A stretch of DNA of 64,000 nt from Cyanophora paradoxa CCMP329 (GCA_004431415.1 QPMI01000436.1:496001-560000); one strand, 5' to 3'. Counted from the first letter of the stretch, positions 6,147 through 55,000 are shown. A program made the numbers and translations. The notes: generated by a model not told the origin, from the sequence alone.

Positions 6147-7541
6147 CTACTCCATACGTCGGCCCGAGCCGCCGATGAGGGAGATGATGAACACGAAGAG
6201 GCGCGTGACGTCAAGGTAGAGGGAGATGGTGGCCCAGATGTACTCGTCGGGCTTCAGGTGCTTCACGAGCACCGACGTGTCGTACACGATGTAGAGCCCG
6301 AAGAGGACGGCGCCCACCAGCGAGAAGACGAAGTGCGTGACGGGGCCCAGAGGCACGAAGAGCTGTATCAAGCCCCAGCCCGCGAAGATGCCGAGCACGA
6401 CGAAGAGCCTGCGCGTGCGAGGCGCGGCGCCGAGTCGGCGGGCTGCGTCGGCGGAGGCGCGAGCGGGGCGGCGGCGGCGGACCCTGCCCCCATGAAACTG
6501 AAGTCACGGGATGTCTGGAGCGTGTAAAGCGTGAGGCATATTGTGATGCCCGCTGTCAGCCCCGCAGCCTCCAGAACCTGGAAGCGCGCCGGTCGGTTGG
6601 GCGGAACGGGCCGCGCCGCGCACGCTGCGCATGAAGCAGGGCGCACCACCATCGCTGAGTAGTATGTGCAGATGACAGCTATCGTGTACGCCTCCACGAT
6701 TGTCTGCGGGACGGGGAAGTCAACGAACTGGCTTCCCGCGCCTCGCTGGCCCCTGGCACAGAGCGTGGGGGCCGTCAAAACTAGTGCAATATGAATGGCG
6801 AGCTCACCCAGAGGAGCAAAAGGACCTGCAGGGCGGAGGACAGTGAGCTCCTGCCAGTGAACACTCACGGGCGAGCAGGCGGCGGACCATGTTGGTAGGA
6901 TATGAGTGACGCTTGAACCACATGGGAACAAACAACGCCAAGGGGAGAAACACGGCAATCCAGAACACGGTTGGCGACGCCTGGACCCAGTTGCGGATGT
7001 CCGCGACAAACATGAAAAGGACGATGGTGGCGGTCGTGATAAGGAGCTGCAAGGATAGTATGCCATAGACCTTCCTCAGAAAACCTGGGGACGCAGGTCA
7101 GGCAGCGGCCGGTTGGCTCGGATTGAGGCATGATTGCGCACCGAGGCGGACACTAACGGCTGCGGCGCGGACGAATGCACTATAGGTCTCCGGAGTAGCT
7201 GTGGAATCTACTACAGCTCCGCCAGGTCGATCGCCCGGCCGGAAGATATGTAAGGTCGTGGTGGTGCGTGTCTGAGTCACCACCGCCGACGCGCCCGGAG
7301 GGACCAGGTCATAGGCCTCGAATCCCTTCTGATTCTCTTCATCTGCCCCAGATGCTGCGGGTGATGCCCCTCGTATCGTCAGCTTTCCAGCGACGGCTTC
7401 ATCGCCAGGCTCCGTAACGCCGGTCGAACTGCTGCTGCTCGTAACGAGGCTGCTGCCGCTGTAAAGAGGGATGTCTGGCAGCCCGCCCTTCTCCACATCC
7501 ACCTCTGCCGGTTCGGGCCGCACTTCTCTGGGGCGCACCAT
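6147..7541 (-). CDS. Bax inhibitor-1 / Lifeguard (TMBIM, GAAP-like) membrane protein
   Basis: Spliced exons give FLRKVYGIL..QLLITT, RHSYPTN, TIVEAYTIAVIC, VLEAAGLTAGITICLTLYTLQTSRDFSFMG and GAVLFGLYIVYDT...PDEYIWATISLYLD, the classic TMBIM signatures. Confidence 0.92.
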
Positions 7542-11506: not shown

Positions 11507-13915
11507 CTATGTGCTCCGCCAGGGCATGGTCATGATGAGGGGCTTGTAGAGCCCCGGCCCGGGATTCGCCTGGCTCGAGCTGCCCTCCGGGTTCTTGGCC
11601 GAGAGCTCCGCGGACATGTACCGCTTCTTCTCGCGGTCCCGGTCCGACGTGCCGAACCCGGGTACGGGCGACTTCCTCAAGGTGCTGTGCGTACCCTCGG
11701 CGATGGCGGAGCGCGCCTCGTAGGCCCCCGGGCCCGGCGTGTCCTTGCCGACCATGTCCTTGTCCATCCCCTTCGCGATGAAGCGGTGCTCTGAGGACGA
11801 ACGAAGGCGAAGCGCACGTCAGACTTGGGACGGGACGAGGCGGGAGTAACAATAGATCTTAGACGGCAATGTATCCCTTCTCGTTAGACTAGGCGAAGGC
11901 GGAGCTAGGGAGCTAATAAAGGCTTAGAGCTAGAGAGTTCTCGAACAAAAACGAGAAGGACGCACGGCGCTCGTTGTCGCGCTGGGAGGTGCCGATGCGG
12001 ACCGCCGGGCTCTTCTCGACCGTCGGGTCGACCAGCGTCCCGACCGTCGGGCGCAGGTTGTAGGCCCCGGGCCCCGGAATCTCCCCGCTCCTCGTCTTCT
12101 TCTTTCCCTTGGCGCCGTCCGCGCCCACGCCAACGCCGCGGGACGCCTTTGCGAACCCGTACGAGGTCGTCTCGCCCATCTTGGAGGGGGGGTGGTACAC
12201 GGGCCCGGGGCTCCCCTTGCCCCACTCGTCCGCCGAGAGCTTGGATCCCATGAAGACCTTCTTCTGCTGGTCGCGCGTCGCCGTGCCGAAGGAGAACTGC
12301 GGCGCCCCGTCCACCTTGCCCTGGTTCGCGTCCGTGTTGTAGATCGGCCTGCGCGCGCGCGCGAGCGCGAAACAGTCAGAAACGGGATAGAGAAGTTAGC
12401 TCAGCTAACTGGCCATGGTTAGCCTTTATCAGTTAGAACCTTAAAGTAGGCAGCTTCATAAGATATACATTCGAGCCATCGGCCCGGCCCGGCCCGGCAA
12501 GGCCCGGCCCCGCAGAGCGCACGCACCCGGGGGAGACAGTGGGGTGCAGGTTCGTGCGCTGCTCCGACGTGCCGAAGCCCCAGCGCGGGAGGTGCTCGCC
12601 CACCGTGCCCTTCAGGGGGTACTGCCCCGGCCCCGGCGCCGAGCTCGCTGCTCGCCCGGAGTGAGAGAGGGCGGGGGAAGGGGAAGGGGGGTAGGGGGGC
12701 AAGCAAGCACATCGGCTGCCGAGGTCCCTTGTCGATTTGGAGAAGACGGGGCGCGCGTCCACGGTCTTGGTGGGGCTCATCACGCCCGTGTCCACCTCGC
12801 GCCGCTCGTAGGCGCCGGGCCCGGGCACCGCCTCGCGCTTGTCCGGCGGGAATCGATCCCGCGAACCGAAGACGTGCTGGGGAGCGTTCGCCTGCTTCCC
12901 GGTCTTGGACTGCCGCCCGACCGGCTGGACGGCGTTGTCCAGCTCGTACTTCCCGGGCCCGGGGGTGCCCCACCCCTTCTGGTCCTTCTCCATCTCCTTG
13001 GAGAGGAATCGCTCTGCGCAGCGCGGGGGGGTACCCGGGCTCAGCGGCGGCCCCGGCCGCTTCGTTCGCTATTGGCCCCGCGCACTTCGTTCGCCGTCGC
13101 GGTTGCTCTTCCCGAAGGTCGCGGCCGGCGCCTTTTGAGCGGACGGGTCGTTGTCCACGGGGTACTGCGCAGCGCACGCCCGGCTCAGGACCCGGGGGGG
13201 GGGGGGGGGGGGAGGGGGGGGGGTATGCCGCACCGCCCCGGGGCCCGGGGTGGCGTCCCGCCCGCCGCCGCCCATGCGCCCGCGTCCCGTGGATCCGAAT
13301 GTCCACCTGGGCCCCTCTACTTCCCCCTTGTCGTTCGGCCGCGCGTGCGCCCTGCCGCCCGCCCCGCCGTCCCCGTCGGCGCCCCGCGAGCAAAGAAGAG
13401 CGGGGCGGGGCGGGGCGGGGTCGAGCCGGGCGCGCACCCGGGCCCCGGCTCGTCGTTCGCGATGCCCATTCCTTTCCTGGGCGCGGTGCCGAAGCCGTAC
13501 CGGGGGCCCTGCGAGGCGCCCGCCGTTCAGCGGCCCGGCGGCGGCGGCGGGCGCGCAGAGTCAACGCACTGTCTCCTTCTCGGCAGCAGCGGTCACGTTG
13601 TAGGCGGGGCCGGGGCTAGCATTCTCCAGTCCAGACTTTGCGCGGCCCGCCCCGCCGATCGAGAACTTGGGCGCATCGCCTGCGTGGGCTTGAGCCGCGG
13701 CACGCGGGGACGCGGGGGACGCTCCTCCGCTCACCAATGCTGGTGGTTACACTGTAGATGGGCCCTGGCCCGGTGCGGCCTAGGTGCTCTTTGGTGGTCT
13801 CTTTCGAGAGGTACTGTTTCTGTGGTTGCCTTGGGCCGCTGCCGAAACTCCAGCTAATCGAGTAGTCATTGGTGCCGAACAGCTGGTGCTTGGGCACACT
13901 GCCTGGCGCTGACAT
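11507..13915 (-). CDS. ODF3/SHIPPO-repeat (sperm-tail PG-rich repeat) flagellar protein
   Basis: Repeated PGPGxY motifs (GPGPIY, TPGPGKY, VPGPGAY, APGPGQY, SPGPVY, IPGPGAY, TPGPGAY, NPGPGLY) alternate with (W/F)xFG motifs across the exons. Confidence 0.88.
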
Positions 13916-14480
13916 CGCGCTGGCTCGCTCCGCCTGGCTGCAGATGCCGCCGCAGCCCTTGGTGCGTCTTAAACGCTTGTGGCAGTCTACAGCTGCGCGC
14001 CGGTTCTCGATGTGACGTCCAGCTTCTGCGGGAGGAAACGCGTCTCGCGGCCGGCCCCAATTAATCTGTTTGCGTACCCGCAGGTCTGATTGCTCAGCGT
14101 ACCCCCGCAACAACGCCTGGACCAGGCGGAACCACTTCACCAAGCTTAAGGTCCGAGACCGGGATCCGCTCCAATTCCGCGAAAGCTAACACGCCGGCTT
14201 GATAGCAGAGCTCGTTCGGCCCGTCTCCGGCGGGCGGCTCGGGTTGACGTCGACGCTCTCTCCGACATCGTCGTCGGGCCCGACAGCCACGGTGCGCGGC
14301 TCGCCGACGTGGCTGGGCGGTGAACGTGTTTCTTCTAGTCGCGGCATTTGTCCCGGAGAACCCTGCGGACACACCTCCGGACCTCCGGAACCGACGCTGA
14401 TCATGATGGCAATCGCAAAGCTCGGCTCACGACGTGGCTCTCGCAGTTCTCGGGGATCGTCTTCGCGCAAGTTCGGCATC

Positions 14481-17400
14481 ATGGGTAACAAACGTGCGCC
14501 AGTGCTTCAAATTCTCGAACTGCCGTCGCGCCGGCCGCGGCCGCAGCGCAGCGGCCGGGCTGAACACATACACATCGCAGTCCCCAAGGAGGTTATCAGC
14601 CAATGCGATGGCTACGGCGCCAACGGCCCACAGCCTCTCAACAAGATCGAAGTGGCCTGCCGCGCTGGGACCCCCGAGAAGCAGTGCAAGGTCCGCCGTT
14701 CCGCGCTCAAACGCGCCCCGCGGCCGCATGTGCTAGCTTCGTGCTTGCTGACGCTTCGGTCAGCTCTTCGTGGAGCAGACGTGCACCGATCTCGCCACGC
14801 TCTACAACGGACCGGCCGGCGTTGCGCGCGATTTGATGTGAGCCCGTTCGCGCTTTCTGGCGGTGCCGTGCGCTTGCCGACTACTCGCGGCGCCGCAGCA
14901 CCCGGCTTGAGGCCCAGAACCAAGCTAGAATTGTGCACCCCGCCCCGCCGCTTGCTGCGAACCCCTCCGAGGCTCTGACGCTGTACCCCGCCGCCGATGG
15001 CAGAGAATCGAGTACACCCCGAACGACAAGAACGTCACGTACCCCAGGGGAGAGGCGTCGTACTATGATCCCAAACTGAAGGCGATGGTCCAGTACCCCC
15101 CAAACACGATCCCGGTCCTGTGAGTGCCTGCGCATGCCTCTCCTGCCCTGGGCCGGGGCCGGCGTCGACGTCCAGCTGCGGCGCTGACTAAGGGGTCGCT
15201 TCCGGTCCGCAGCTACAACCCTGCCGCCACGCAGAACGCGGTCGATGGGGACCGCGACCCATACGTCGGGCTCGGGCAAGAGGTGCGTACGTACGCTCCG
15301 CGGTTCCGCGGTCCCCGGTCCAGCCCTTTCTCGCTTGTTTTGATCTCGATCCACCGGTACCCCTCCCCGCAGCTCGTGCGCGCGTGGCATCTCGCCAGAG
15401 GTACGCTCCGCTCCCCCCCCCCCCCCCCCCCCCCTCAAGGCCTACGCCTCCGCCGGCGCCGACCCGCAGACGCACGCGCAGGCATGTACCCCGAGAAGGC
15501 GGGTACGGATTTCATCAAGACGTGCATGGTGCTGGGCCAAGGGCCCTACGGCGTCAACATGCCGATCTCGGACCGGCTCATCCGCGCCGAGTTCAACCAG
15601 GCTCCCCGCACCACCTACCGTCCGCCCTTTCTCCGCCCCTGCCGTCCTACGCGGCTGACGACGCCGCTTTGACTTGCAGCGCAATCGGCCCCGAACGGGT
15701 GCAGCGACGCCGCCAAGCTCGCCGACATGCGGGCGCTCTACATGTCCCCCGAGTTCATCGAGGACTGGAACGTCCTTAAGGACGCGATTGCGGGGAAGCC
15801 CCCCGGGACGACCCTGACCGCGGACCGGACCAGCCACTGCACCGGCTACGGCGTTGGTGCGCGTTCGGATCCGCGCTGCTCGTAGCCCCTTCCGAAATCG
15901 AAGAGACTCCGAAGTAATCCGCGCCGCCGCGCCAGGAAATCTGCAGAAGATCGGAGTTCTGTGCAGGGCCGGAATGGACGAGTCGTATTGCGCGGTACGC
16001 CGCCGGTATTCACGAGCTCGCCCCGCTTGCGCGAGCTGATTTCCTTCTTTGGTGATCACCGCAGTCGTTCCAGCGCATGGTACGTCTCGGCCGCGGCCAG
16101 TTTGCTGTGCCGCGGGCCGCTCGAGCTCGCGCCCTCCGCGGCTGGCATTTAACTTCAGCCCGCGACGCGGGCGCGCGCGCGCAGATCTGCAGCGACCTGA
16201 AGACGATCTACGAGGCGCCCAACAACCACGGCCGGACTCTGATGTGAGCCGATCGCGATCGGCCTTCATTTTCTCAGCGAAGAGCTAGAGGCTGATTTTC
16301 GACTTCGAATTCTTGCGGCGCGGCAGCCAGCGACTGGAGGCGCAGCCTAAGAACATCGTGCGCCGCGGGCTAAGCCTCTGACACGCTTCTGACGCGGCGA
16401 GTGCCTCTGACGCCATGTCTCCCGCGACCTGCGCATGCGCGCCCCACAGACTATCGTTCTCAACGACTCCGAGACGAACGAGGCGATCCCGGCACGGAGC
16501 GTGGGCAACACCGCCGGCACCTTCTACGACGCCTTCAGCCGCCAGAACCTGCAGGTCCTATAAGATCTACTCGTAGATCTCGTGGCGTCTTGCAAGACTT
16601 AAAGCTTCTTAAAGACTTAAAGCTTCCTATAAGATCTACTGTGTGGTTTTAACATTAAAATCTCGTGGCGTCTTGCAAGACTTAAAGCTTCCTTCCGGCC
16701 GCACTGCCGCAGTACCCGACGGACGCGATCACGGTCAAGTTCAACCCGACCTCGATGACGACGCCGACCGACGGCGAGCGCCCGCCCTTCATCTCCCTCG
16801 CCCACGAGGTGCGTACGTATACGTCCCGCGCGCGCGCGGTCCGCGGCCATGCGTATTATGGCCAGCCCGGTTCGATCACGCATATATGCTTTGCACGCAT
16901 AGAATACTAGTTCGATCCTAATTACCGCGGGGCGCGCGGTCCACGGCCATGCGTATATATGTATAAGGCCAGCCCGGTCCCGCTCGCTCTTGATCCTCTA
17001 CCCCCGCTCGCCCTCTCCGCAGCTCATGCACGCGTGGCACTGGGCCTATGGTGCGCGCAGCGCGCCTCCCCCCCCCCCCCCCCCCCCCCCCCCCGCCCCG
17101 ACCCGAGGCGCAGGCATGTACCCCCCGAAGGCCGAGGGCGACTCGAGCTTCGTGAAGGAGTGCATGGTGCTGGGCCGGGGGCCCTTCGCCGCGAACATGG
17201 ACGTCTCCGAGCGTCACCTCCGCGCCGACGTCGGCCTCCCCGAGCGCCACTTCCACGGTGCGGTTAATTGTAACGCTGTTGGTTTCAATTCAAATTTTAG
17301 TATCGTTTGTTAATTCCGGTCTGATCGCGGCCGATCTGATAAACAACACAACTGCAATGAGTTTTAACTAGTATCTCCGACTAGATACTACTACCGAGAA

Positions 17401-17960
17401 ACGTGTAGAAAAGGCCGCTGCCTCTGCTCACTTCACATTTTCGCCGCAGGCAAGTCGGTGCCGAAGCCCGACGGCTGCAACGACGTGGCCCTGCTCGCCA
17501 GGATGGCCGCCAGCGGGTGGGCCCCCTGGGCCCCGCCCCCGCCCCCGCCCCCGCCCCAAGTCCGCACCCAGCTGGACGACGACGCGGCCAGCGTCGTGGT
17601 GCCCTACTCGGCGGACCCGGCCGAGGTCGACGTGCGCCCCGCTGTGGCTAATTATAAGATCTCCTATGTGATTTTAATATTAAAATCTCATAGTGTCTTA
17701 TACGACTTTTTCTTTATTCGAGGGCCGAGATCGGCTCGGCTCGGCTCGGCTCTGCTCTGCTGACAGCGCTCGCGCAGGCGGCGGACCTCGCGGATGCCTT
17801 CGGAGGGGACGAGGGCGGCGCCGCGGGCGATTTGATCGAGGGCGCCGCCGCCGGCGCCGCCGAGGACGCGGCGGCGTTCGAGGCCTGCCCCTGCTGCGGG
17901 GCCGCCGCCGGCGCCTGCGCCGTCGGCGGCGGCGAGGCACACGCCGGCCACATGCTCTAG
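14481..17960 (+). CDS. Putative N-myristoylated protein with two tandem M91-like (NleD/HopH1-type) zinc-metallopeptidase domains; first degenerate, second intact
   Basis: Starts MGNK|LPKEVISQCDGYG. Domain 2 reads ITVKFNP...RPPFISLAHE|LMHAWH...VKECMVLG...VSERHLRADVGLPER. Domain 1 reads VLYNP...RDPYVGLGQE|LVRAWH...IKTCMVLG...ISDRLIRAEFNQAPRTTY. Confidence 0.75.
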
Positions 17961-19074
17961 ATCTAGATCCAGGCCCCGGCCGCGATGATCCTGATCTGTG
18001 TTTTAGTTCTATTTCTAGTTCTAGTTCTAGTATTCCTGTGTGTCGTGGTATATCTTACAATTGTGCGCCCGAGCCTCGGAGATCTAGAGCGCTCGGCGGC
18101 TGGCCCAGTGGCCGATTTTGATTGACTGCTGTTCTCTTAGGCTTTCTCATCGAATTTACAGACTTTACTCTCTTCGTGCTTGCTTACTACGTGCATGCAC
18201 ACTGTGACATATGGCGTACATCGATGATCGATGCATCATGGCATATGCACGTCCCGGCCCACGCGTACGTGCACGTCCCGGCGCGCACCACGTCACGGCG
18301 TCACGGCGTTATACTCGAATTCGAAGCCTTGAAAACTAATCACATGACTCTAGATCTAGTGATGGCTTTACATGTAAATGCATTAGCATGGCTCTAGACT
18401 CTGAGAAATTTGAAAGCCCGATACACGGATGGCTAAGTGACTGGACACTACGTATACGTATACATAGACGCACATAAAACTTCGCATACGTATATACTAT
18501 GCATACGATGATACGCCAACGCGCAATGATAAAATAGAAATCGAAAACCTAGATCTAGAGTGCCACGGTGAATATGAAATTAATTATATAAATCTCAAGT
18601 CTGCAAACGATTCCGACACGGGTCATGATGAATTGAAAAGAAAGTTGAAAGAGTCGAGATATATAAAGCCAACTGGCGCATTCAATCTGGAAGGCAGCCG
18701 TGCGCTATAAAAACCATGCATGGTAAATCAAACCAAACTAAAGGATTCCGGAGTCCGGAGCTGGCGAAAGGGACGACGGATGGATGGATCGCCGTGGCCA
18801 GCCGCAGAGCGCGAGCGTGGCGGGTACCGCGGCCGGCTACGTACACGCAGACGGCCCTCAGAGGAGCGGGGGCGGGGGGGGGGGGGGGGGGGGGGGAGGT
18901 GCCGGCCAGCTGCCGCCGGCCCGGGAGGGGGGGGGCGAGGAAGGGGGAGGGCGGCGGCCCTAGGGGAGGGACAGGCTCGAAAGGGCGCGGGGGGTCGCGA
19001 TCGCGATGGGGGCAGCCGAAGGGGCGGCCGAAGCGCCGCCGAAGCGGCGGAGGACGGGGAGGAGGGAGGGCGGC

Positions 19075-22007
19075 CTACTGGCCTGGGCATAGGCCTGCAG
19101 CCGGGGCGGGCGCCGGCGCCGGCCCGGCGTCGAGGCCGCCGAAGCGGCGGAGGACGGGGAGGAGGGCGGCGCGCGTGATGGGCTTCACGACGTGCTCGTC
19201 GAGCCCGGCGGCGAGGGAGGCCTCCCGGTCCGATGGGCTCCCGAACGCCGTGCACGCCACTGGCGGGCCGGGCTAAGGGACCGGGGGAGGAGGGGGGTAC
19301 GGGGCGCACCGAGGGGGGTGCGGGGCATCCCGAGCTCGTCCTCCATCTGCCGCAGGCGCTGCGCCATCGCCAGGCCGTCGCACCGTGGCTGGCGGGGAGG
19401 GGTGCGGGGTCAGGAAGCAGGGTGGGGGTGGGAGACCGCGGGGGGGGGGGGGGGGGGTACAAGTCACCATGGCGATGTCGGAGAGGACGAGGTCGAAGGG
19501 GGTACGGGCGCCGGGGCCGGGGTACCGGGTCCGGGGCGCAGCATCTCCAGCGCCTCCTCGCCGTCTTTTGCCTCTGCCGTCGCGTGGCCCATCCGCCGCA
19601 GCAGCGCCGTCAGCACCCGCCGGTTCATCTGAGTTCGAAGAGGGGGGGAGAAGCGGATTAGGGGTAGGGAAGGGGAAAGGGGGGTACGGGCGAACCTCGA
19701 CGTCGTCGACGACAAGGATGCGGAGGGGTGTACAGCCGCGGGCGGTTCCGGAGGGGTAGCGCCGTCGAGGGAATCGAGGGAGGCCGGGGCGGCGATGGCG
19801 AGGGGGGTAGGACGTTCCTCCGCCGGGCGGCGCCGGCGCCGACGCCGGCGCTCCGTCCCGAGCGGGGGGAGCTGGTCGACGAGGAGGGGGCACGGGGGGC
19901 CAGGGGGCAGAGGTTGGAAAAGGACGGGGAGGGTCCGCAGGCGCCGGCGGCCGGGGGCGAGGGGGGCCGGACCGAGGCGCTGCGCATGCGGGCCCCGGCC
20001 CCGGGCCCGCCCGCGGGGAGGGTTTCCAGCTCGGTGCCTGTACCCCCCTCGGGCGCGAGCTCCGCAAGCAGCGCCGCCTTGCGGATCGGCTTCGTCAGGA
20101 CCTGCGAACGACGCTCAGAAAGGAACGGAAAGGAGAGGAAAGGAAAGGAGAAAGGGGAGGAGCCACGTGGGCCGCGTGGCCATAGGCCACGTGGGCCACA
20201 TGGACCTTGTCCGATCCATGCCGGAGCGAAGGAAAGGAAAGGAAAGTAAAGGAAAGGAAAGGAAAGTAAAGGAAAGGAAAGGAAAGGAAAGGAAAGGAAA
20301 GGAAAGGAAAGGAAATGTAAAAGAAAAGGACCTTGTCCATGCCGGAGCGGAGGCAGGCCTCGAGCTCCTCTGAGCCAGCGTGGCCCGTGAGGGCGACGAT
20401 GCGGCAGGGGGCGAGGCCCCGCGCCGCCTCCAGCGCCCGGATCCGCTCCGTCGCCTCGCACCCGCTCAGCACCGGCCTGCCGGCCGGCCGCGGGATCATC
20501 TAGCCGTCAGCGAGATGTATAGCTAAATCTAGAGGAAAGAAGGGGGCCTAGGTCGCTGCAAATCGAACCCAGTCTTATCGGATATATATCCAAACGAGGC
20601 AGTTCTAGATCTAGATAAATTTTATCGCTCGGCTGCACATGGCCATGGAGCAGTCCATGAAGGGGCAGAGGCGCCTGTTTCTAAAGTCTAACTTAATTAG
20701 GTTAAGCTTAGACTAAGCAAGTTAAGCTTAGACTAAGCTTAGTCTAAGCTCGGGTCCAAGGTCTTTCTTTGGCCCTCTGAGGCGCACATGGAGCAGTCCA
20801 TGAAGGCGGCCGAGTAGGCGGCCCGCCCCGCCGGCGTCGCCCCCGCCCGCCCCGCGAACAGCGCCACCGCCTGCGGGGGGAGGGGGGAGGGTACGTGAGA
20901 CGGGGGGGGTGGGGGCGCAGGGAGGGCGGGGCGAGGCCCGGCGGCCGGGGCAGGGCGAGCGGAGAGATTTTGGTAGCCTAGCCGAGATCGAGGGAGGGAC
21001 AGGGACAGGGGGTGGGTGGGGGAGAGGGGAGGGGGGGGGGGGGGGGGTAGGGTGCGGGGCGGGACGGGGCGGGGCGGGGCGGGCCTTGGCGCCGTCGGTG
21101 GCGACGTCGCAGGGGTACCCGGCGCCGCGCAGCATCGCCGACAGGATCCGCCGGTTCACCTGAGGGGGTGGGCGGGGGAGGAGAAGTGAGCGAGTGAGGC
21201 AGACGCGAGGGAGGGAGGGAGGGAGGGGCGGAGACTTCGATTCGATCCGACTCGGATCTCAAGCGAATACAAAGCTAAGGGAGCTGACGCCCTCCGGACT
21301 CGGCGCACCCCCTCGCCCTCGCCCCGTCCAAACAAACCCAACCTTAATATCCTAATCTCGATTTAGATTTAGATCGTAAAAGGAATGCTAAGAATTAAGA
21401 CTACGTACGCCCCCCCGGCCCTGTCCCGTCCCGTCCCGTCCCGTCCCGTCCCGGCGCACGCACCTCGTCGTCCTCAGCGATGAGGACGCGTGGCCCGCCA
21501 GCCTCCTCGGACCCCCCGGCCGCGGCCGAGGCGGGGGGCGAGGTGGGCTGGACGCCCCACGAGTCGGCGCGGGCGCCGACGCCCACGGCCGAGAGGGAGA
21601 GGGCCGAGGCGGGGGGCGAGGGCGGGAAGGAGGAGGAGGAGGAGAAGGCGGGGGGGCCCGGGCCCGGGGAGCCGGGCGGGGCGGCGCGGAAGGGCCACGA
21701 GAAGAAGAAGGTCGAGCCGCGCCCCACCTGCGATGTCGATCGCGTGTAAGCGCTAGCTCGAAGGCTCGATGGATGCGTGAAGCTCAACGCCCGTGTAACT
21801 ATGCAACTATAGTGCTCTAAACGCTGAAACTATGTAACTTTATAACTATAACTATATGTAACTATATTAACTAAGGAAGCCCGGCCTGCTCGGGGCTGCG
21901 TGCAGCTGGAGAGGGTGCTGGGGAGGGCGGGGGCGGGGATCGGACCTCGGACTCGCAGCCGATCTCGCCGCCGGCCGCGTTGACGATCTCCTTCGAAATC
22001 GCGAGTC
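19075..22007 (-). pseudogene. Duplicated 3' fragment of the hybrid histidine kinase (end of HATPase plus two receiver domains), no start or promoter
   Basis: Copy of the exons LAISKEIV...VGRGSTFFF...REC1...REC2...GLCPGQ*. The upstream side abuts the duplication junction. Confidence 0.75.
20229..20315. repeat. (GGAAA)n microsatellite in an intron; second copy at ~24388-24474
   Basis: Pentamer array visible directly in the sequence. Confidence 0.95.
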
Positions 22008-23227
22008 CTGCCGGGTAGAGGAAGGGAGCGGGTATGAGGATTCCTGCCGGGGCGGGGGCGGGGCCGGGGCGCCTGCGCCGTCGGCGGCGGCGAGGCACAC
22101 GCCGGCCACATGCTCTAGATCTAGATCCAGGCCCCGGCCGCGATGATCCTGATCTGTGTTTTAGTTCTATTTCTAGTTCTAGTTCTAGTATTCCTGTGTG
22201 TCGTGGTATATCTTACAATTGTGCGCCCGAGCCTCGGAGATCTAGAGCGCTCGGCGGCTGGCCCAGTGGCCGATTTTGATTGACTGCTGTTCTCTTAGGC
22301 TTTCTCATCGAATTTACAGACTTTACTCTCTTCGTGCTTGCTTACTACGTGCATGCACACTGTGACATATGGCGTACATCGATGATCGATGCATCATGGC
22401 ATATGCACGTCCCGGCCCACGCGTACGTGCACGTCCCGGCGCGCACCACGTCACGGCGTCACGGCGTTATACTCGAATTCGAAGCCTTGAAAACTAATCA
22501 CATGACTCTAGATCTAGTGATGGCTTTACATGTAAATGCATTAGCATGGCTCTAGACTCTGAGAAATTTGAAAGCCCGATACACGGATGGCTAAGTGACT
22601 GGACACTACGTATACGTATACATAGACGCACATAAAACTTCGCATACGTATATACTATGCATACGATGATACGCCAACGCGCAATGATAAAATAGAAATC
22701 GAAAACCTAGATCTAGAGTGCCACGGTGAATATGAAATTAATTATATAAATCTCAAGTCTGCAAACGATTCCGACACGGGTCATGATGAATTGAAAAGAA
22801 AGTTGAAAGAGTCGAGATATATAAAGCCAACTGGCGCATTCAATCTGGAAGGCAGCCGTGCGCTATAAAAACCATGCATGGTAAATCAAACCAAACTAAA
22901 GGATTCCGGAGTCCGGAGCTGGCGAAAGGGACGACGGATGGATGGATCGCCGTGGCCAGCCGCAGAGCGCGAGCGTGGCGGGTACCGCGGCCGGCTACGT
23001 ACACGCAGACGGCCCTCAGAGGAGCGGGGGCGGGGGGGGGGGGGGGGGGGGGGGGAGGTGCCGGCCAGCTGCCGCCGGCCGGGAGGGGGGGGGCGAGGAA
23101 GGGGAGGGCGGCGGCCCTAGGGAGGACAGGCTCGAAAGGGCGCGGGGGGTCGCGATCGCGATGGGGGCAGCCGAAGGGCGGCCGAAGCGCCGCCGAAGCG
23201 GCGGAGGACGGGAGGAGGGAGGGCGGC

Positions 23228-26200
23228 CTACTGGCCTGGGCATAGGCCTGCAGCCGGGGCGGGCGCCGGCGCCGGCCCGGCGTCGAGGCCGCCGAAGCGG
23301 CGGAGGACGGGGAGGAGGGCGGCGCGCGTGATGGGCTTCACGACGTGCTCGTCGAGCCCGGCGGCGAGGGAGGCCTCCCGGTCCGATGGGCTCCCGAACG
23401 CCGTGCACGCCACTGGCGGGCCGGGCTAAGGGACCGGGGGAGGAGGGGGGTACGGGGCGCACCGAGGGGGGTGCGGGGCATCCCGAGCTCGTCCTCCATC
23501 TGCCGCAGGCGCTGCGCCATCGCCAGGCCGTCGCACCGTGGCTGGCGGGGAGGGGTGCGGGGTCAGGAAGCAGGGGTGGGGGGTGGGAGACCGCGGGGGG
23601 GGGGGGGGGGGTACAAGTCACCATGGCGATGTCGGAGAGGACGAGGTCGAAGGGGGTACGGGCGCCGGGGCCGGGGGTACCGGGTCCGGGGCGCAGCATC
23701 TCCAGCGCCTCCTCGCCGTCTTTTGCCTCTGCCGTCGCGTGGCCCATCCGCCGCAGCAGCGCCGTCAGCACCCGCCGGTTCATCTGAGTTCGAAGAGGGG
23801 GGGGAGAAGCGGATTAGGGGTAGGGGAAGGGGAAAGGGGGGTACGGGCGAACCTCGACGTCGTCGACGACAAGGATGCGGAGGGGTGTACAGCCGCGGGC
23901 GGTTCCGGAGGGGGTAGCGCCGTCGAGGGAATCGAGGGAGGCCGGGGCGGCGATGGCGAGGGGGGGTAGGACGTTCCTCCGCCGGGCGGCGCCGGCGCCG
24001 ACGCCGGCGCTCCGTCCCGAGCGGGGGGAGCTGGTCGACGAGGAGGGGGCACGGGGGGCCAGGGGGCAGAGGTTGGAAAAGGACGGGGAGGGTCCGCAGG
24101 CGCCGGCGGCCGGGGGCGAGGGGGGCCGGACCGAGGCGCTGCGCATGCGGGCCCCGGCCCCGGGCCCGCCCGCGGGGAGGGTTTCCAGCTCGGTGCCTGT
24201 ACCCCCCTCGGGCGCGAGCTCCGCAAGCAGCGCCGCCTTGCGGATCGGCTTCGTCAGGACCTGCGAACGACGCTCAGAAAGGAACGGAAAGGAGAGGAAA
24301 GGAAAGGAGAAAGGGGAGGAGCCACGTGGGCCGCGTGGCCATAGGCCACGTGGGCCACATGGACCTTGTCCGATCCATGCCGGAGCGAAGGAAAGGAAAG
24401 GAAAGTAAAGGAAAGGAAAGGAAAGTAAAGGAAAGGAAAGGAAAGGAAAGGAAAGGAAAGGAAAGGAAAGGAAATGTAAAAGAAAAGGACCTTGTCCATG
24501 CCGGAGCGGAGGCAGGCCTCGAGCTCCTCTGAGCCAGCGTGGCCCGTGAGGGCGACGATGCGGCAGGGGGCGAGGCCCCGCGCCGCCTCCAGCGCCCGGA
24601 TCCGCTCCGTCGCCTCGCACCCGCTCAGCACCGGCCTGCCGGCCGGCCGCGGGATCATCTAGCCGTCAGCGAGATGTATAGCTAAATCTAGAGGAAAGAA
24701 GGGGGCCTAGGTCGCTGCAAATCGAACCCAGTCTTATCGGATATATATCCAAACGAGGCAGTTCTAGATCTAGATAAATTTTATCGCTCGGCTGCACATG
24801 GCCATGGAGCAGTCCATGAAGGGGCAGAGGCGCCTGTTTCTAAAGTCTAACTTAATTAGGTTAAGCTTAGACTAAGCAAGTTAAGCTTAGACTAAGCTTA
24901 GTCTAAGCTCGGGTCCAAGGTCTTTCTTTGGCCCTCTGAGGCGCACATGGAGCAGTCCATGAAGGCGGCCGAGTAGGCGGCCCGCCCCGCCGGCGTCGCC
25001 CCCGCCCGCCCCGCGAACAGCGCCACCGCCTGCGGGGGGAGGGGGGAGGGTACGTGAGACGGGGGGGGTGGGGGCGCAGGGAGGGCGGGGCGAGGCCCGG
25101 CGGCCGGGGCAGGGCGAGCGGAGAGATTTTGGTAGCCTAGCCGAGATCGAGGGAGGGACAGGGACAGGGGTGGGTGGGGAGAGGGGGGGGGGGGGGGGGG
25201 GGTAGGGTGCGGGGCGGGACGGGGCGGGGCGGGGCGGGCCTTGGCGCCGTCGGTGGCGACGTCGCAGGGGTACCCGGCGCCGCGCAGCATCGCCGACAGG
25301 ATCCGCCGGTTCACCTGAGGGGGTGGGCGGGGGAGGAGAAGTGAGCGAGTGAGGCAGACGCGAGGGAGGGAGGGAGGGAGGGGCGGAGACTTCGATTCGA
25401 TCCGACTCGGATCTCAAGCGAATACAAAGCTAAGGGAGCCGACGCCCTCCGGACTCGGCGCACCCCCTCGCCCTCGCCCCGTCCAAACAAACCCAACCTT
25501 AATATCCTAATCTCGATTTAGATTTAGATCGTAAAAGGAATGCTAAGAATTAAGACTACGTACGCCCCCCCGGCCCCGTCCCGTCCCGTCCCGTCCCGTC
25601 CCGTCCCGGCGCACGCACCTCGTCGTCCTCAGCGATGAGGACGCGTGGCCCGCCAGCCTCCTCGGACCCCCCGGCCGCGGCCGAGGCGGGGGGCGAGGTG
25701 GGCTGGACGCCCCACGAGTCGGCGCGGGCGCCGACGCCCACGGCCGAGAGGGAGAGGGCCGAGGCGGGGGGCGAGGGCGGGAAGGAGGAGGAGGAGGAGA
25801 AGGCGGGGGGGCCCGGGCCCGGGGAGCCGGGCGGGGCGGCGCGGAAGGGCCACGAGAAGAAGAAGGTCGAGCCGCGCCCCACCTGCGATGTCGATCGCGT
25901 GTAAGCGCTAGCTCGAAGGCTCGATGGATGCGTGAAGCTCAACGCCCGTGTAACTATGCAACTATAGTGCTCTAAACGCTGAAACTATGTAACTTTATAA
26001 CTATAACTATATGTAACTATATTAACTAAGGAAGCCCGGCCTGCTCGGGGCTGCGTGCAGCTGGAGAGGGTGCTGGGGAGGGCGGGGGCGGGGATCGGAC
26101 CTCGGACTCGCAGCCGATCTCGCCGCCGGCCGCGTTGACGATCTCCTTCGAAATCGCGAGTCCTGCCGGGTAGAGGAAGGGAGCGGGTATGAGGATTCCT

Positions 26201-29200
26201 GCCGGGGCGGGGGCGGGGCCGGGGCCGGAGCTAAGAAGGGAAGCTCATAGAGGTGGAGCCGGAGCCGGGGAGCCGGGGCAGAGGGGCCGGGGCGGGGGCG
26301 GGGCAGAGGGGCGGGGCAAAGCTTCTTCTAAGCTTCTGATCTTCTAAGCCTTCAAGCCTTTTAAGCCTTGAAGCGGAGCGCGGACCGAGGCCGTTGCCGC
26401 CCGGGTCGGTGGCCATGTCGGAGTGGGCGCGGAAGAAGGGCGAGAAGAGGCGCGCCACCGACGCCGGCGCGATCCCGGGGCCTGCAGGCCCCGCCGCAGC
26501 CGGCTCAGCACCGCGCACCCAATCTAAGCTCTAAGGCTATTTTGGGCGGCTCTAAGCTCAGCCGGCTTAAGCTCTCAGCTAAGCGGCTCAGCACTGCAGG
26601 CGCAGCCGGCTCAGCATCGATATCGTGGCACCCGGGCGCTTGGCCCCATAGGGCTTAATCGAGATCCGGTATCGGGTGCGCGCGCGCGCGCGCGCGCGCC
26701 GCGCCCCAGCTGCCTCAGCGCCGCGGCACCCTGATCTAATCTCTAAGGATCTAAGCTTCATCTAACGCAAGCTTCATCTAACGCACCGGAGTCCTCGACC
26801 TCGAAGCGGACGCAGAGGGCGTCCCCTCCGGAGCCGCCGGGGCCCTCGCCGCCCTCCCCCAGCGCCTCCACCGCCTCGGGCGAGAGGGGCACGAGCCCCG
26901 CCCGCACCTGGAGGGGAGGAGGTGAGGAGGAGGGGGGGAGGGGGGGAGGGGAGGGGGGCATTGTTCTAGAGAAACTTCTAGGAGAAGCGAGGGAAGGAGG
27001 ATATGTCGATCTCAAGAGAACAGTCTCAGCGGGGCGGGGCGGGAGGGGGGGAGGGTGCGGGGGGGGGGGGGGGGGGGGGGGGGCGGGGCGTGGGGTGCGG
27101 GGCGCACGCGGATGGCGCCGCTGTTGCTGTACTTGACGGCGTTCGAGAGCAGGTTCAGCACCACTGCGCGGCGCGGCGGGGCGGGGCGGGACGGGCCGGG
27201 GCGGGTTCGGGTCAGAATTTTTAGAACGCTCGTTCGCTTTGTGTATACGTAGCTGCAGGCCACTCGTTCTGGCGAATTTAGATTTCGAATTCGATTTGTC
27301 TGCCTTGTCTCTATCGCACCCTGGCAGAGGCGGTTCGTATTCCGTCTATAGCTTATCGATCTGAATTTAGCTTGTCTATCTAGATCTATAATTGCGATCG
27401 CACCCTGGCAGAGGCGGTCGGGGTCGCCGAGGAGGGCGTCCGGGACCGTCTCCTCGACCGCGAGGGCCACGTCCAGGCCCTTCGCCTCCGCCTGCAGCTG
27501 CACCTGCGGGGGCGGAGGAGGTTGGGATTCACCGAGGGCGAGGACGGGTCGCCTGGAGGATCTAGGGTCTAGATGTCTCGTGGAAGTGATTCGTTCGATA
27601 CGATCTCTCTGGCTCGCGGGGAGGAGGTGGGGAGGCGGGCGCGCGTGATGCGCATGGCCTAGGTTCAAAGGTCCCGAGTCTAGAGGCATCGATCGAAGTC
27701 GGAGAGGGGAAGAGGGCCCGGGGGTACGCGCGCACGATGCGCATGGCGGCGCAGGCGAGGAGGAGGGTGGGGGTGGGGGGAGGTGAAGGGGAGGGGGGGG
27801 GGGAGGTTGAGGGAGAAAGGAGGCGAGAGATAGGGGGTACGCGCGCGCGCACGATGCGCATGGCGGTCCTAGGGTCTCGGGCCTAGGATCTAGAAGGTCT
27901 AGGTCCAGAGTCCTACAAAAGGGGGGAGGAGAGTCCTACAGAGTCGAGGTAGAAAGGAGGGAGAGATAGGGGGAGGGCCGGGGGTACGCGCGCACGATGC
28001 GCATGGCGGTCCTAGGCGCGTGCCATCTAGGATCTAGGGTCGGGGAGGGGGGGGGGGGGGGGGGGGGCGGGAGGATCTAGGATCTAGGGTCGGAAAGGAG
28101 GGCCGGGGGTACGCGCGCGCGCACGATGCGCATGGCGGTGCGGAGGACGGCGCGGAGGGAGAGGGGCACGCGCCGCAGCTGCATCGCACCCACCTCCATA
28201 CGCTGGAACTCGAGCACCTGGGGGGGTAGGGGAGGAGGAAGTTAAGGGGGGGTAGGGGGTAGGGGGTGGGGATAGTGGGAGAGCACCGCGTCGATAAGGA
28301 AGCGGAGGTGGTTGCCCGACTGCGCCGCCGCCTCGACGTACCTGCGGGGGTACAGAGTCAGAGTCGGGTTCGGGTCGAGAAGGGGGCTACAGGCGCACCC
28401 GGCGGCGTCGGGGGGTAGGGCGCAGTCGGCGGCGAGCTCGAGCATGCCGAGCACCCCGTTCAGCGGCGTCCGCACTGCCGGGCGATAAATATTGGAAATT
28501 GCGGGGACGTGAAGAGCGAGAAGAGGTGGCGGCTGCGGCGCCGGCCGCCGTGGCCCGACTCTAGCTATAGCGTGGGGGCGAGGCGGGGCGGGCGCGGGGC
28601 GGGGCGGATCGAACGCTAAGACTTTGGGACGCTCGGACTTTGAGGCGCGGTGGGGCGGGACTCTTGAGGATTCAAGCTTAAGGTCTCAAGCGTAATGGTT
28701 TAAAAGGGAGGAGGGGGACGGGACGGGACGGGGCGGGGCGGGGCGGGGCGGGCCCCGCTCTCGTACTTGAGGCACCGCGGCCCGACTCTACTACTAGAGT
28801 CGAGATCTAAACTCTATCTTAAGGGCGGGGCGGGGCGGGGCGCACTCTCGTGGGACATGGAGGCGAGGAATTTCTTCGTGCTCTCCGCCTGCAGTGCGAA
28901 ACGAACGTGCCGCGGCGTCGGTTGGATCGGGGTACGCGTGGGGTGGGGCCGGCGCCTCGGGGGACGGCGGCGTCGGTTGGATCGGGGTACGCGTGGGGTG
29001 GGGCCGGCGCCTCGGGGGACGGCAGCGGGCCGGCAGCGGATCTTCATTCGAGCTAGGAAATCTGGAGATCTAGATCATCGTTTAGATGGCCTTGGCCTGG
29101 GTGGGTGGGTGGGGGTGGGGGGGGGGGGGGAGGGGAGGGGGGAGGCGGAGGCCGCGGCGGTGCGGGGCGGGGCGGGGGCGGAGGACGGGGCGGGCGCACG

Positions 29201-45369: not shown

Positions 45370-46576
45370 ATGACCTATGCGCGCTTCATCGAGCAAGCCA
45401 TGTCGGATCCTGATAGGCGTCAACAGGCTGAGAAGCTCTCCGTGGTGTGGCTTGCGCCTCGCATAATTGTTCGTCGCTTTAAGTGGGCATACAGGCCATC
45501 GCGCAAGCAGGCGAGTTCGGTCAGAGTCAAGTGCTGGAGGCTGTAAAAGAGCTGAAGAACGGTCAGAGCGATCTGGACAAGAAACTTTGGGTAAGGGTTC
45601 TGTGTCTGGTTGCCGAGAAGAGTCTCTTACCCTGCGGCCAGGCAATCATCATCACTCTGGTCGGATTGTGAGCGTATTCCGCTTTCCGATCTTCACCGTT
45701 TGAGTTCCTAATGCCACGTACAGGCTGCTGAGCACCATCCTGTCACGCAACGGTGCGATTCGTGTTTGTATCTCGAATGCATGCTGTGTGTACCTGAACC
45801 ACAATTCCATCAGGGAACGCTTCGCCCCCTGGCCCCAGCACGGCCCCGCCCGCGGCCGCGGCCTCCCCGCCCGCGGCCTCCTATCCCGCGGCATCCCCGC
45901 CCGCGGCCTCCTATCCCGCGGCCTCTCCGCCCGCGGCCTCCTATCCCGTGGCATCCCCGCCCGCGGCCTCCTATCCCGCGGCCTCTCCGCCCGCGGCCTC
46001 CTATCCCGTGGCATCCCCGCCCGCGGCCTCCTATCCCGCGGCCTCTCCGCCCGCGGCCTCCTATCCCGTGGCATCCCCGCCCGCGGCCTCCTATCCCGCG
46101 GCCTCTCCGCCCGCGGCCTCCTATCCCGTGGCATCCCCGCCCGCGGCCTCCTATCCCGCGGCCTCTCCGCCCGCGGCCTCCTATCCCGTGGCATCCCCGC
46201 CCGCGGCCTCCTATCCCGCGGCCTCTCCGCCCGCGGCCTCCTATCCCGTGGCATCCCCGCCCGCGGCCTCCTATCCGCGGCCTCTCCGCCCGCGGCCTCC
46301 TATCCCGTGGCATCCCCGCCCGCGGCCTCCTATCCCGCGGCCTCTCCGCCCGCGGCCTCCTATCCCGTGGCATCCCCGCCCGCGGCCTCCTATCCCGCGG
46401 CCTCTCCGCCCGCGGCCTCCTATCCCGTGGCATCCCCGCCCGCGGCCTCCTATCCCGCGGCCTCTCCGCCCGCGGCCTCCTATCCCGTGGCATCCCCGCC
46501 CGCGGCCTCCTATCCCGCGGCCTCTCCGTCCGCGGCCGCCGCTACCCCGCCCGCTCAGGCCTCGCCCGTACAGTAG
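45370..46576 (+). CDS. Coiled-coil + single TM protein with an (ASPPAASYP[A/V])n tail; one apparent 1-nt deletion in the repeat
   Basis: Spliced: [25 protein letters not shown]|AIAQAG...[15 protein letters not shown]|AIIITLVGL|LLSTILSRN|[24 protein letters not shown]...ASPVQ*. Further upstream exons from ~44946 may be UTR or coding. Confidence 0.55.
45870..46529 (+). repeat. Minisatellite of ~22 x 30-bp units alternating A/B (60-bp higher-order repeat)
   Basis: cccgcggcctcctatcccgcggcctctccg alternates with cccgcggcctcctatcccgtggcatccccg. Confidence 0.97.
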
Positions 46577-52049: not shown

Positions 52050-55000
52050 ATGGCCTCGGCGGACCCGCCGCGGGGCCTGGGCATCCTCATCCTGATCTTC
52101 CGGTTGTGCGTGTTCGTTTTCTACCACAGCGTCTCAATCGTGGGCCAGTCCCTCGTCCCGAAGGTCCGACGATCTTTGCCGTCGAAACCGAGCCTCCCGG
52201 CTCACCGCCGCCGCAGAAAGGGGCCGTGATCGTTACCGCGAACCATGGCAACTCGCTTATGGACGCCCAGATGGTCCTCACCTCGTGCCCCAGGAGGGTG
52301 CGCATGCGGCTCTCTAGATGGCGATCCGATGCGCCGGTTCAGGACCGGCGGTCTCACGGCCGGAGCAGGTCCGTCTGACCGCAAAGGATACGCTCTGGAA
52401 GAGCACCTGGTGGCGGTGAGCGCGATTCCCGGCCGATCGTCCACGCGCGCGCGCTCAGCCGCGCGCGCAACGCAGCTTCTGGCTGTCGAACACCGGCACC
52501 ATCCCGATCAAGCGCGCTATGGACCACGCCGGCGAGAAAGTCGTGCGTGCTGTCGCCTTTCCTTTCCTCTGGCCAGGGCTCCTCGAACGCCTCGCGCAGG
52601 ACAACACGTCCAGCTTTGACGCGCTCTACAAGGTGCTCGACAACGGGGGGTGCATAGGCCTCTTCCCCGAGGGAATCTCGCGCTACCGCCCGTGCGCTCG
52701 CTCGCCCCCGCCCCCGCCCCGCCGCGCGCTCGGCGACCCCCGCGCGCCTCGCTCGCTTAGCTAAGCCGCCGCGCCGGAAGGTGGCTCTCCCCTCTCAAGC
52801 CCGGCGTGGCACGCATCGGTGCGGGGCGCAACCGGCTCGCGCTCGCGCTCCCGCTCCTCTCTTGCCGCTAAGGCGCCCCGCGCGCAGCCCTCGAGTCGGT
52901 CGCGCGGAACAAGGATCCCGATTTCAGGTGCGGCCGCCCCTCCGCCCCGCGCCGCGCTACGCCTTAGTGGGCCCAGGCTCTTAGCATAGCTTTAAGCTCG
53001 AGGTCTAGGTTCTAAGACGGTCAAGGCTTTTCAGCTTCAGTATTCTAGCTTCCTCCAACGTTCTGAGTCGCCCCCCGCCCCCGCAGCTGCGCGATCCAGC
53101 CGTGCGGCCTTAGCTCTGAGACGCCCTAAGTAGCCTAAACTCTTAGCGCCTCTTTAAGCTTCTTGAAGTAAATTATTCGAATTCTGAGGCCGACTAGGCT
53201 TTTCAGCTTTAGCATTCTAGGTTCTGAGACGCCCCCCGCCCCCGCCCCCGCAGCTGCGCGATCCAGCCGTGCGGCCTTAGCTCTGAGACGCCCTAAGTAG
53301 CCTAAGCTCTTAGCGCCGCTTTAAGCTTCTTGAAGTAAATTATTCGAATTCTGAGGCCGTCTAGGCTTTTCAGCTTTAGCATTCTAGGTTCTGAGACGCC
53401 CCCCGCCCCCGCCCCCGCCCCCGCAGCTGCGCGATCCAGCCGTGCGGGCTCACGTACATGCACCGCGACAAATTCCGCTCTGACGTCGTCTGCCGCTTCG
53501 GCGAGGCGCGCGCGATCCCGTACCCCCCACTTCCCCCCCCCCGGCCTCACCGGTAACCCCCCCCCCGCAGCCCATCGTCGTCGACCGGAAGACCTACCCC
53601 AAGGTGCCCTACCCCACCCCCGCCGCCCCTCCTCCTCCCTCCCTCCGCCCCGCTCTAAGCCTCCCTCCCTCCCTCCCCCCCCCCCCCCCCCCCCCCCTTC
53701 CCCCACCGCGCAGCTGGACCTAGCCGTGCCTAGCCACCTAGCCACCCAGCCGCCTAGCTCAGTGCTGTAGTTGTAGTGCCAGATCCCGATCCCAGTGCCG
53801 CCGCCTAGAAGCCGTCTAGAAGCCGCCTAGAAGCCGCCGGAGGGTGAAGGGGGCGCTGTTCTCTTCCCGGGGACCTCACCTGACCTGACCTCATCGCCTC
53901 TGGCAGCGCATCGACCGCCTGGGGGTCACCCAGGAGCTCGTCCGCCGCCGGGTGCGCTCAGATCAGATCAGATCAGATCAGATGGAATCTGATCTGATGG
54001 AATCTGATCTGATCTGATCTGAATTGATCCTGCAGCCGTCGGTGATCGCGTGCGCGTGGCGCGTGCTGCTGCGCGCCCTCTCCGCCGCCTTCCTGCTCTC
54101 CCTGGCCCTCCCGGGTACGACAAAAATCCCGGCGTAACCTATATTTAGCTCACCTGGCTCCCGCGCTCGCCCCCCGCAGGCATCGTCATCCTCTCGCCGC
54201 TCTTCGTCGCGAGCCGCTACGTAGAGGGGTACTGCATGCGCCGCGCCGGCGGCGCCGAGATGAACCAGGACGAGGCGCGCCGTACCCCCCCCCTCTACCC
54301 CCCTCTACTTAGCCCTCCGGTCAGGTCGCCCAGTTCAAGATCTCGGCGGCGGTCGTCATCCTCCCCACGCTCCTCTCGCTCTCAACTACTGCCTCCTGGG
54401 CCTTCCTCGGGGCTCGGGCGACCGCCGCCCTCGCGGCCGGCCTCCCGCTCCTCCTCTGGCTCACCCTACGCTGGCTCGAGGTGCGTACCCCCCCTTAAAG
54501 ATCCGGATCGGATCCGGATCCGGATCCGGATCCCTGGCCATGGGCCGCGCGCGCCCGCCCCCCTTCCTTCCTCTTCCTCCTCTCCCTCCCCTGCCCCTTC
54601 TGAAAGCGGTACCCCCCCTTCCTCCCTCCCCCCTCCCCCAGGACGGGACGCACTCGGCGCGGACGATGCTCCTCTACTGGCGCTGGATGACCCTGGCCCC
54701 CTCCGTGAAGCGCGAGGTCCGATCTCCGCACACATATATGAAGCAGCTCGAAGATCTAGAGCTCGCGGACGTGTAACCTTTTAATTTAGCACAACTTCGT
54801 CCCATAGAGCGGCACGGGTTCCGATAGGAATAACAGCGGCCACGTAGCAACTAGGATCTGATGAAAGGTCCGAATGATTTATAGATGCGAGCGGAGGAGA
54901 GGGGCTCTAGTAAGACCTAAGGAGGGCTCTTTTGCATAGCCATAAGCTTTGCTTGAGAAGCTTCACTTAGTATATATATATATACGTTGATGTGCCTCCG

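Follow-up and report, generated by a model that had tools for sequence, protein, structure and literature searches.

A Spliced Two-Domain M91 Gene of Cyanophora paradoxa with a Predicted Zinc Protease Domain and a Domain without Zinc Ligands

Overview

The coding region at 14481–17960 on the plus strand of the window (the whole 64,000-nucleotide stretch of Cyanophora paradoxa DNA that was analysed) comprises 19 exons encoding 553 amino acids, and it is read here as an expressed algal gene of peptidase family M91, likely of bacterial origin, in which domain 1 is likely a binding module and domain 2 is a predicted intracellular zinc endopeptidase of narrow specificity. This reading draws on sequence comparison and a modelled fold and is given a probability of about one half. 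M91 proteases are weapons injected by bacteria into animals, plants, and other bacteria. A native algal M91 family would be a case of a host keeping a bacterial weapon, would offer a natural pair of dead and live domains from which to learn which residues M91 catalysis needs, and would hint at a so far unknown proteolytic pathway in a plant relative that branched off early.

Gene Structure and Transcript Evidence

Coding exons 1–7 lie at 14481–14493, 14581–14690, 14764–14837, 14899–14932, 15004–15119, 15213–15282, and 15373–15400; exons 8–13 at 15482–15619, 15680–15856, 15936–15994, 16065–16079, 16185–16243, and 16327–16357; and exons 14–19 at 16450–16554, 16713–16808, 17023–17050, 17114–17257, 17450–17631, and 17778–17960, all on the plus strand. 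All 18 coding introns have GT..AG ends, and a single open frame runs through the 553 codons with no stop or shift. Two further plus-strand introns of the 5′ UTR (14151–14208 and 14292–14446, together spanning 14151–14446) appear as joints in transcript contigs, and since the translated spliced leader contains an in-frame stop and no ATG, 14481 is the start. Contigs came from three putative RNA runs, X1, X2, and X4 (the label is a guess), and from a DNA run, X9. Joints in contigs of the three putative RNA runs support at least 14 of the 18 coding introns as well as the two 5′-UTR introns: introns 1–6, 8–13, 17, and 18 are supported by contig joints, 14–16 by contig arithmetic, and intron 7 is inferred. 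A 15-nt microexon in the region of introns 8–13 is among the supported joints, and none of these splice joints occurs among the contigs of X9. Transcripts that fail to join both domains would have spoken against the original prediction, and a 1097-nt contig found in X1 and X2 does join them: it begins in the 5′ UTR, crosses domain 1, and continues into the opening exons of domain 2.

A search with exon 17 against 5.8 billion clusters returned one protein, P0001, which is EukProt Cyanophora paradoxa P012887. This public model differs from the present one solely in its later donor for intron 15, which inserts 10 residues into the zinc motif. A 205-nt contig of X4, one piece of which ends at 16806, has a length that fits a donor at 16809 and not the later donor of P0001; the twin intron of domain 1 sits at the equivalent place. 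On an M91 profile built from 72 homologue domains, the insert lowers the score by about 18 bits. The splice choice of the public model, which disrupts the zinc motif, is corrected here. The window is eukaryotic, GC-rich DNA, and a GC3 of 0.85–0.95, together with the spliced contigs, excludes contamination. It has been reported that the C. paradoxa genome is likely haploid and carries 9.2 introns per gene with a mean length of 86 bp (PMC6704402). At 16386–16479, covering the end of intron 13 and the start of exon 14, other contigs match at higher depth in X1, X2, and X4, which suggests a repeat or an alternative transcript start.

Several neighbouring features were observed. A SHIPPO (sperm-tail PG-rich) repeat gene at 11900–13900 on the minus strand stands head to head with the M91 gene, and the short stretch between them is covered by transcript contigs. 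A hybrid histidine kinase-like gene with receiver domains, recognised from motifs by eye, lies at 18600–26500 on the minus strand and converges on the M91 gene; the open frames tried in this interval gave no Pfam match. The segments 17896–22051 and 22052–26225 form a tandem duplication of about 4.16 kb with 99.4% identity, which takes in the last ~20 codons of the M91 gene and, from its neighbour, the 3′ part. The junction shows up in X9 as a loose end, with the depth going from about 29 up to 43, so the duplication is likely real. Further away, a piece of a Bax inhibitor-1 family gene lies at 6371–7075 on the minus strand (E 6e-6, below the cut-off), an array with a 15/30-nt period and about 39 overlapping copies at 45700–46660 matches GLTT and extensin-like repeats, and two 167-nt copies, head-to-tail and 98% identical, occupy 53072–53405.

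Family Assignment and Predicted Fold

With P0001 as the query, its 10-residue insert included, Pfam Peptidase_M91 (PF14891) was matched over two stretches at 41.9 bits against a cut-off of 25 (E 1.8e-10), and nothing else in Pfam passed its cut-off. Nine bacterial M91 domains and two exons of the gene seeded a profile search that gave 84 M91-like proteins, and on the profile built from 72 of their domains, domain 1 (14598–15750, plus strand, aa 11–218) scores 31.6 bits and domain 2 (15832–17526, plus strand, aa 246–458) 72.5 bits. Both the Pfam match and these profile scores bear out the family originally proposed. Among single exons searched against Pfam, exon 15 alone touches M91 (E 0.11). 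No NCBIfam family was matched, no delivery module (T3SS signal, Rhs, WXG, or PVC) was found in Pfam or NCBIfam, and there was no Pfam match to the M27 profile and no phmmer match to solved light chains. Two phmmer matches among solved structures were dismissed as chance.

The fold was modelled from an alignment of 42 short single-domain M91 homologues to domain 2, giving a mean pLDDT of 64.9 and a pTM of 0.51; the single-sequence fold was poor (pLDDT 40.7). The order of strands and helices is alike in both domains of the model, and the pTM near 0.5 suggests that the packing of domain 1 against domain 2 carries no confidence. When the model was compared with 48,161 solved chains, a comparison that barely tests domain 1, ranks 1–19 were all of the BoNT family, the best being the BoNT/X light chain (Z 11.3 for model residues 241–446, rmsd 3.4, 170 residues), with NTNH/X at Z 9.3. 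The reliance of the model on the 42 M91 homologues aligned to domain 2 was counted against the preferred reading of the gene. GtgA scored Z 7.3, lethal factor 5.9, ERAP1 5.8, and Wss1 5.3. Foldseek gave nothing against the PDB at E 0.001, viral folds gave no match at that threshold, and the solved-structure library contains no M91 structure. The published placement of the M91 fold is likewise closest to the botulinum light chains (PMC6367388).

A best match to a widespread eukaryotic zincin family would have spoken against the original prediction; the gene would in that case be a divergent, vertically inherited zincin of the Wss1/SPRTN or M1 aminopeptidase type. Such folds do occur in the structural list, but at Z 5.8 or less they reach half of the botulinum light chain score; M91 is the sole Pfam family over its cut-off, and bacterial M91 proteins carry an almost identical RPPFI.LAHE stretch, so that this descent is considered extremely improbable.

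Catalytic Residues of the Two Domains

The motifs quoted for the two domains in the original prediction were all found in place. In domain 2, the HE/LMH motif (aa 374–378; 16803–17031, plus strand) is split by intron 15 (16809–17022), and the following segment (17152–17256, plus strand) keeps E400, E417, R421, and R429, with Arg418 in place of Asn and His432 in place of Tyr. In domain 1, the corresponding motif is a degenerate QE/LVR (aa 138–142; 15277–15381, plus strand), split by intron 6, in which both histidines are lost and the general-base glutamate is kept; the third-ligand column and the RxxY motif lie at 15514–15618 on the plus strand, where Thr162 replaces Glu and R191 and Y194 are intact. 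The ligand columns therefore read H374, H378, and E400 in domain 2, where domain 1 has Q138, R142, and T162. Domain 2 thus retains HELMH and the downstream glutamate as described, the E400 column being Glu in 42/42 homologues, and the loss of all three predicted zinc ligands from domain 1 is confirmed.

Eleven columns of the homologue alignment are invariant or nearly so, ten of them counted at 42/42. Domain 2 keeps 9 of the 11 invariant positions, including H374, E375, H378, and E400. Domain 1 keeps E139, G149, R183, R191, and Y194. Elsewhere it has Q138 and R142 in place of His, T162 and D179 in place of Glu, and D131 in place of Pro, and it is changed at the Asn column that is also altered in domain 2. 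All three ligands are lost from domain 1 against 1–2 of the 7 other invariant positions (Fisher p 0.03–0.08), a comparison of sequences that is suggestive of a loss aimed at the ligands.

The family pattern originally cited (EN.IR...R..Y) holds only in part in domain 2: the HExxH portion stands, whereas EN has become ER and RxxY has become RHFH. The [DE]N motif (PMC3482391) and the RxxY active-site motif (PMC6367388) have both been named for M91. In the former, the acidic residue is kept and the Asn, present in 42/42 homologues, is Arg in both domains; in the latter, the Tyr, also present in 42/42 homologues, is missing from domain 2, and the motif is intact in domain 1 and in a second Cyanophora protein, P0002. 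By profile and predicted fold the protein is an M91 member, and with two family motifs missing from domain 2 it is classed as a variant, not a typical member. The transition state of the botulinum light chain is stabilised by both the Arg and the Tyr of RxxY (PMC10454453), and since this Tyr is replaced in domain 2, the domain may be slow, altered, or dead. The replacement of two residues invariant in 42/42 homologues weakens the original view of domain 2 as an active protease and was counted against pairing it, as a protease, with a binding twin.

These same two absences are what would be expected if neither domain cuts and the protein acts instead as a sensor, decoy, or scaffold, perhaps one directed at bacterial M91 effectors or at the targets or inhibitors of such effectors, with domain 2 perhaps holding zinc; the abundant transcript form described below would still make all of domain 1. 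This role is judged unlikely, given that domain 2 retains its general base and three ligands among the 9/11 invariant positions and has the shorter branch in trees, and that His can stabilise the transition state in thermolysin.

Internal Duplication

The two domains align with 88/204 identities (43%), and the alignment score of 390 compares with 34 ± 5 (maximum 57) in 300 shuffles. Six of the seven introns of domain 1 match the column and phase of introns among the nine of domain 2; under random placement, three or more were shared in 9 of 200,000 trials. The equivalent intron positions originally noted are thus extended to six, and they support a duplication that came after intron gain, as had been claimed. 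Three homologous intron pairs rank 1, 2, and 3 of 153 in likeness, the other three ranking 52, 74, and 94, and none of 20,000 random draws of six intron pairs reached the mean likeness of the homologous pairs. As the introns of both copies can still be aligned, the duplication is not very old. In trees, the two domains form one clade (support 99–100), with a longer branch for domain 1 (0.96–1.11) than for domain 2 (0.43).

Between the domains, dN is 0.56 and dS is 0.78, or about 1.0 at 45 fourfold sites after correction for composition, so that dN/dS is about 0.55–0.7. By these estimates, the protein sequence has changed fast since the duplication; dN below dS was counted for the reading of a protease with a binding twin. 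In addition, six cysteines are common to both domains, and 0/42 homologues have Cys at those columns.

A Transcript Form without the Catalytic Exons

The main transcript contigs of X1 and X2 lack 532 nt (16603–17134, plus strand). The contig that continues domain 2 in these runs reads 48 nt into intron 14 and then makes a non-canonical jump from 16602 to 17135. The HExxH exons are thereby lost, and aa 345 is the last residue before the frame closes. The HExxH exons have a contig depth of 0 in X1 and X2, where the skip form alone is present among the contigs listed (2/3 of the putative RNA runs). In X4, the end of an intact contig at 17164 is precisely the break that a branch rejoining at 17135 would produce, which indicates that both forms are present; the intact form has a depth of 2.9, and the shared exon one of 12.5. 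Depths of contigs are a rough measure, and rare forms drop out of contigs. An ordinary splice is not supported for the skip, which has at best CT..AG at its ends and 2 nt of sequence common to them, nor is a reverse-transcriptase skip at a hairpin, since neither fold pairs the ends. The DNA run X9 has an unbroken, unbranched contig across the left end of the skip. The likeliest explanation is a deletion that has spread in culture. Intron 14 (16555–16712, plus strand), which holds the left end of the skip, is AT-rich (44% GC) and contains a 32-bp direct repeat. A short AT-rich, partly palindromic element is shared by introns 14 and 18 (16555–16712 and 17632–17777; 82% over 56 nt) and occurs nowhere else in the window; the skip starts inside it.

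The dominance of the skip form in transcript contigs, together with the longer domain 1 branch and trees that name no donor, was counted against a protease with a binding twin. It would fit a fairly recent duplication in decay, in which domain 1 is an in-frame passenger upstream of domain 2, the whole gene is being lost, and the paralogue P0002 does any real work. The dN/dS is high, the top three ranks in intron likeness speak for a duplication that is not very old, the longest introns, with their AT-rich inserts, cluster in the catalytic half, and the 4.16-kb tandem duplication begins in the last exon. Nevertheless, the losses in domain 1 hit the ligands and spare RxxY and the six shared cysteines, the frame and all intron ends are undamaged, and the missing branch in X9 means that the loss may be an event of culture. 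Decay is regarded as a serious though less probable alternative, and the pairing of a predicted protease with a likely binding domain is preferred.

A Second Cyanophora M91 Protein

P0002 (tig00021179_g19265) is a C. paradoxa protein and the sole non-self match among 1.84 billion representatives. It is on record as a 159-aa piece, matches PF14891 at 25.5 bits, and carries canonical EN and RxxY; it is not a low-complexity match. Its model begins just after HE, where the two-domain gene has an intron, and this intron is probably common to both. The M91 part of P0002 scores 79–89 on bacterial homologues against 46 on domain 2. The acidic Gly/Ala-rich tail of the two-domain protein (17778–17960, plus strand), with a cluster of C530, C532, C533, and C540, shares 35/52 identities with the tail of P0002 (score 146 against 62 ± 8 for shuffles), and no similar Cys motif occurs among the 84 M91 homologues. 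The Cys-rich tail could serve to bind metal, to bear a lipid, or to cover the zinc site. That a paralogue combines this tail with canonical EN and RxxY was counted for a bacterial-type M91 protease. A single origin of the two domains with P0002 has a p-AU of 0.78 and is neither rejected nor demonstrated by the trees.

Origin and Distribution

No orthologue outside C. paradoxa was found among the 1.84 billion representatives, and a word-indexed search matched P0001 itself alone; in both cases, the P0001 query was weakened by its 10-residue insert. None of the 84 M91-like proteins is labelled EukProt, and as the same profile search also missed P0001 and P0002, which lie within its length range, this result is uninformative on other eukaryotes. 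The identified homologues outside C. paradoxa are all bacterial or unlabelled metagenomic proteins. A tblastn search of 72,556 plasmid records gave weak best matches to Paraburkholderia M91 proteins (7/8 records, E 0.06–0.5), viral contigs gave no match, and one match in phage records was discarded as chance. PF14891 occurs in 5 of 401 genomes sampled from one bacterial phylum, a patchy distribution as for conflict genes. Among the metagenome proteins, P0042–P0079 are small (about 175–250 aa) stand-alone M91 proteins with no obvious delivery domain.

The phylogeny, one of the checks originally proposed, grouped the two domains together; their long-stemmed clade has no resolved sister, and the trees name no donor. 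From the distribution of homologues, it is likely that the gene was gained from bacteria. An ancient acquisition, as originally supposed, is weakened by the lack of an orthologue found outside the species and by homologous introns that still align. It has been reported in the M91 family table that bacteria alone are listed (PMC3482391), and no eukaryotic, intron-bearing, or glaucophyte M91 was found in the literature searched, which includes few subscription papers.

N-Terminus and Location

The protein does begin with MGNK, as noted for a myristoylation-type start. The PROSITE-type myristoylation pattern has Gly2 and a small residue at position 6; Gly2, Asn3, and Lys7 are favourable, but with Pro6 the sequence MGNKLP fails this pattern. 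No signal peptide or transmembrane stretch was found, the maximum 19-residue hydropathy being 1.44, in the tail, and that of the N-terminal windows −0.32. The myristoylation and membrane anchoring originally proposed are weakened by these results.

The six cysteines in both domains and the existence of an M91 domain with antibacterial activity (PMC13556075) would suit a disulphide-bonded weapon that the cell exports to attack bacteria or grazers and from which it is protected by domain 1 acting as a cap. This is rated very unlikely, as the protein has no signal peptide or hydrophobic N-terminus.

Proposed Mechanism

An M91 gene would have entered the Cyanophora lineage and then gained introns, six new cysteines, and the acidic Cys-rich tail, features that are observed, the tail being common to the paralogue. 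An internal duplication, supported by the shared introns, would have followed. Copy 1 retains the fold, RxxY, and the Glu that acts as general base, so that it would be able to hold on to a protein or peptide, as an exosite or a brake for copy 2. Copy 2 would cleave a single protein or a small set of them, much as NleD cleaves MAP kinases; with His in place of Tyr, it would probably work more slowly or through an altered transition-state site. The likeliest setting would be biotic conflict or stress signalling, and the gene would hence be dispensable in culture, where the form without the catalytic exons dominates. It is further proposed, tentatively and with less confidence than the main reading, that glaucophytes domesticated a bacterial effector protease of the botulinum light chain superfamily as a small native family with its own Cys-rich tail, one member of which independently evolved the layout of a dead and a live domain known from bacterial toxins, its catalytic half being switchable off at the RNA or DNA level; its role as a protease would then lie in algal defence or stress signalling.

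Comparison with Known Systems

The closest system by sequence is M91/Tox-HopH1, comprising NleD, HopH1, XopG, and Rhs-M91 toxins, with which domain 2 shares HExxH, the third-ligand Glu, and the following Glu and Arg. The nearest relatives within M91 are small stand-alone proteins of Paraburkholderia and metagenomes, with about 28–33% identity over long stretches. Unlike the M91 effectors, the Cyanophora gene is eukaryotic and spliced, consists of two tandem copies with six extra cysteines and a Cys-rich tail, has no secretion or Rhs module, and has Asn and Tyr changed in domain 2. It has been reported that NleD cuts JNK and p38 (PMC11475232) and that the XopG mutants H142R, E143A, and H146R still bind their partner (bioRxiv 2025.02.06.636770), and the latter makes a binding role for domain 1 plausible.

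The botulinum/tetanus light chain (M27), together with NTNH, is the closest solved fold to the domain 2 model. NTNH is not known to carry the zinc motif. Identity to M27 is about 16%, and nothing in the Cyanophora protein, which has neither translocation nor receptor domains, points to SNARE specificity. A duplication gave rise to BoNT and NTNH (PMC7020563), whereas the dead and live copies of Cyanophora sit in one chain. In this layout, the protein resembles anthrax lethal factor, in which a dead N-terminal zincin-like domain, a binding-only copy, precedes an active C-terminal one. Lethal factor differs in belonging to another zincin family (Z 5.9) and in being a secreted bacterial toxin whose dead copy binds the translocase.
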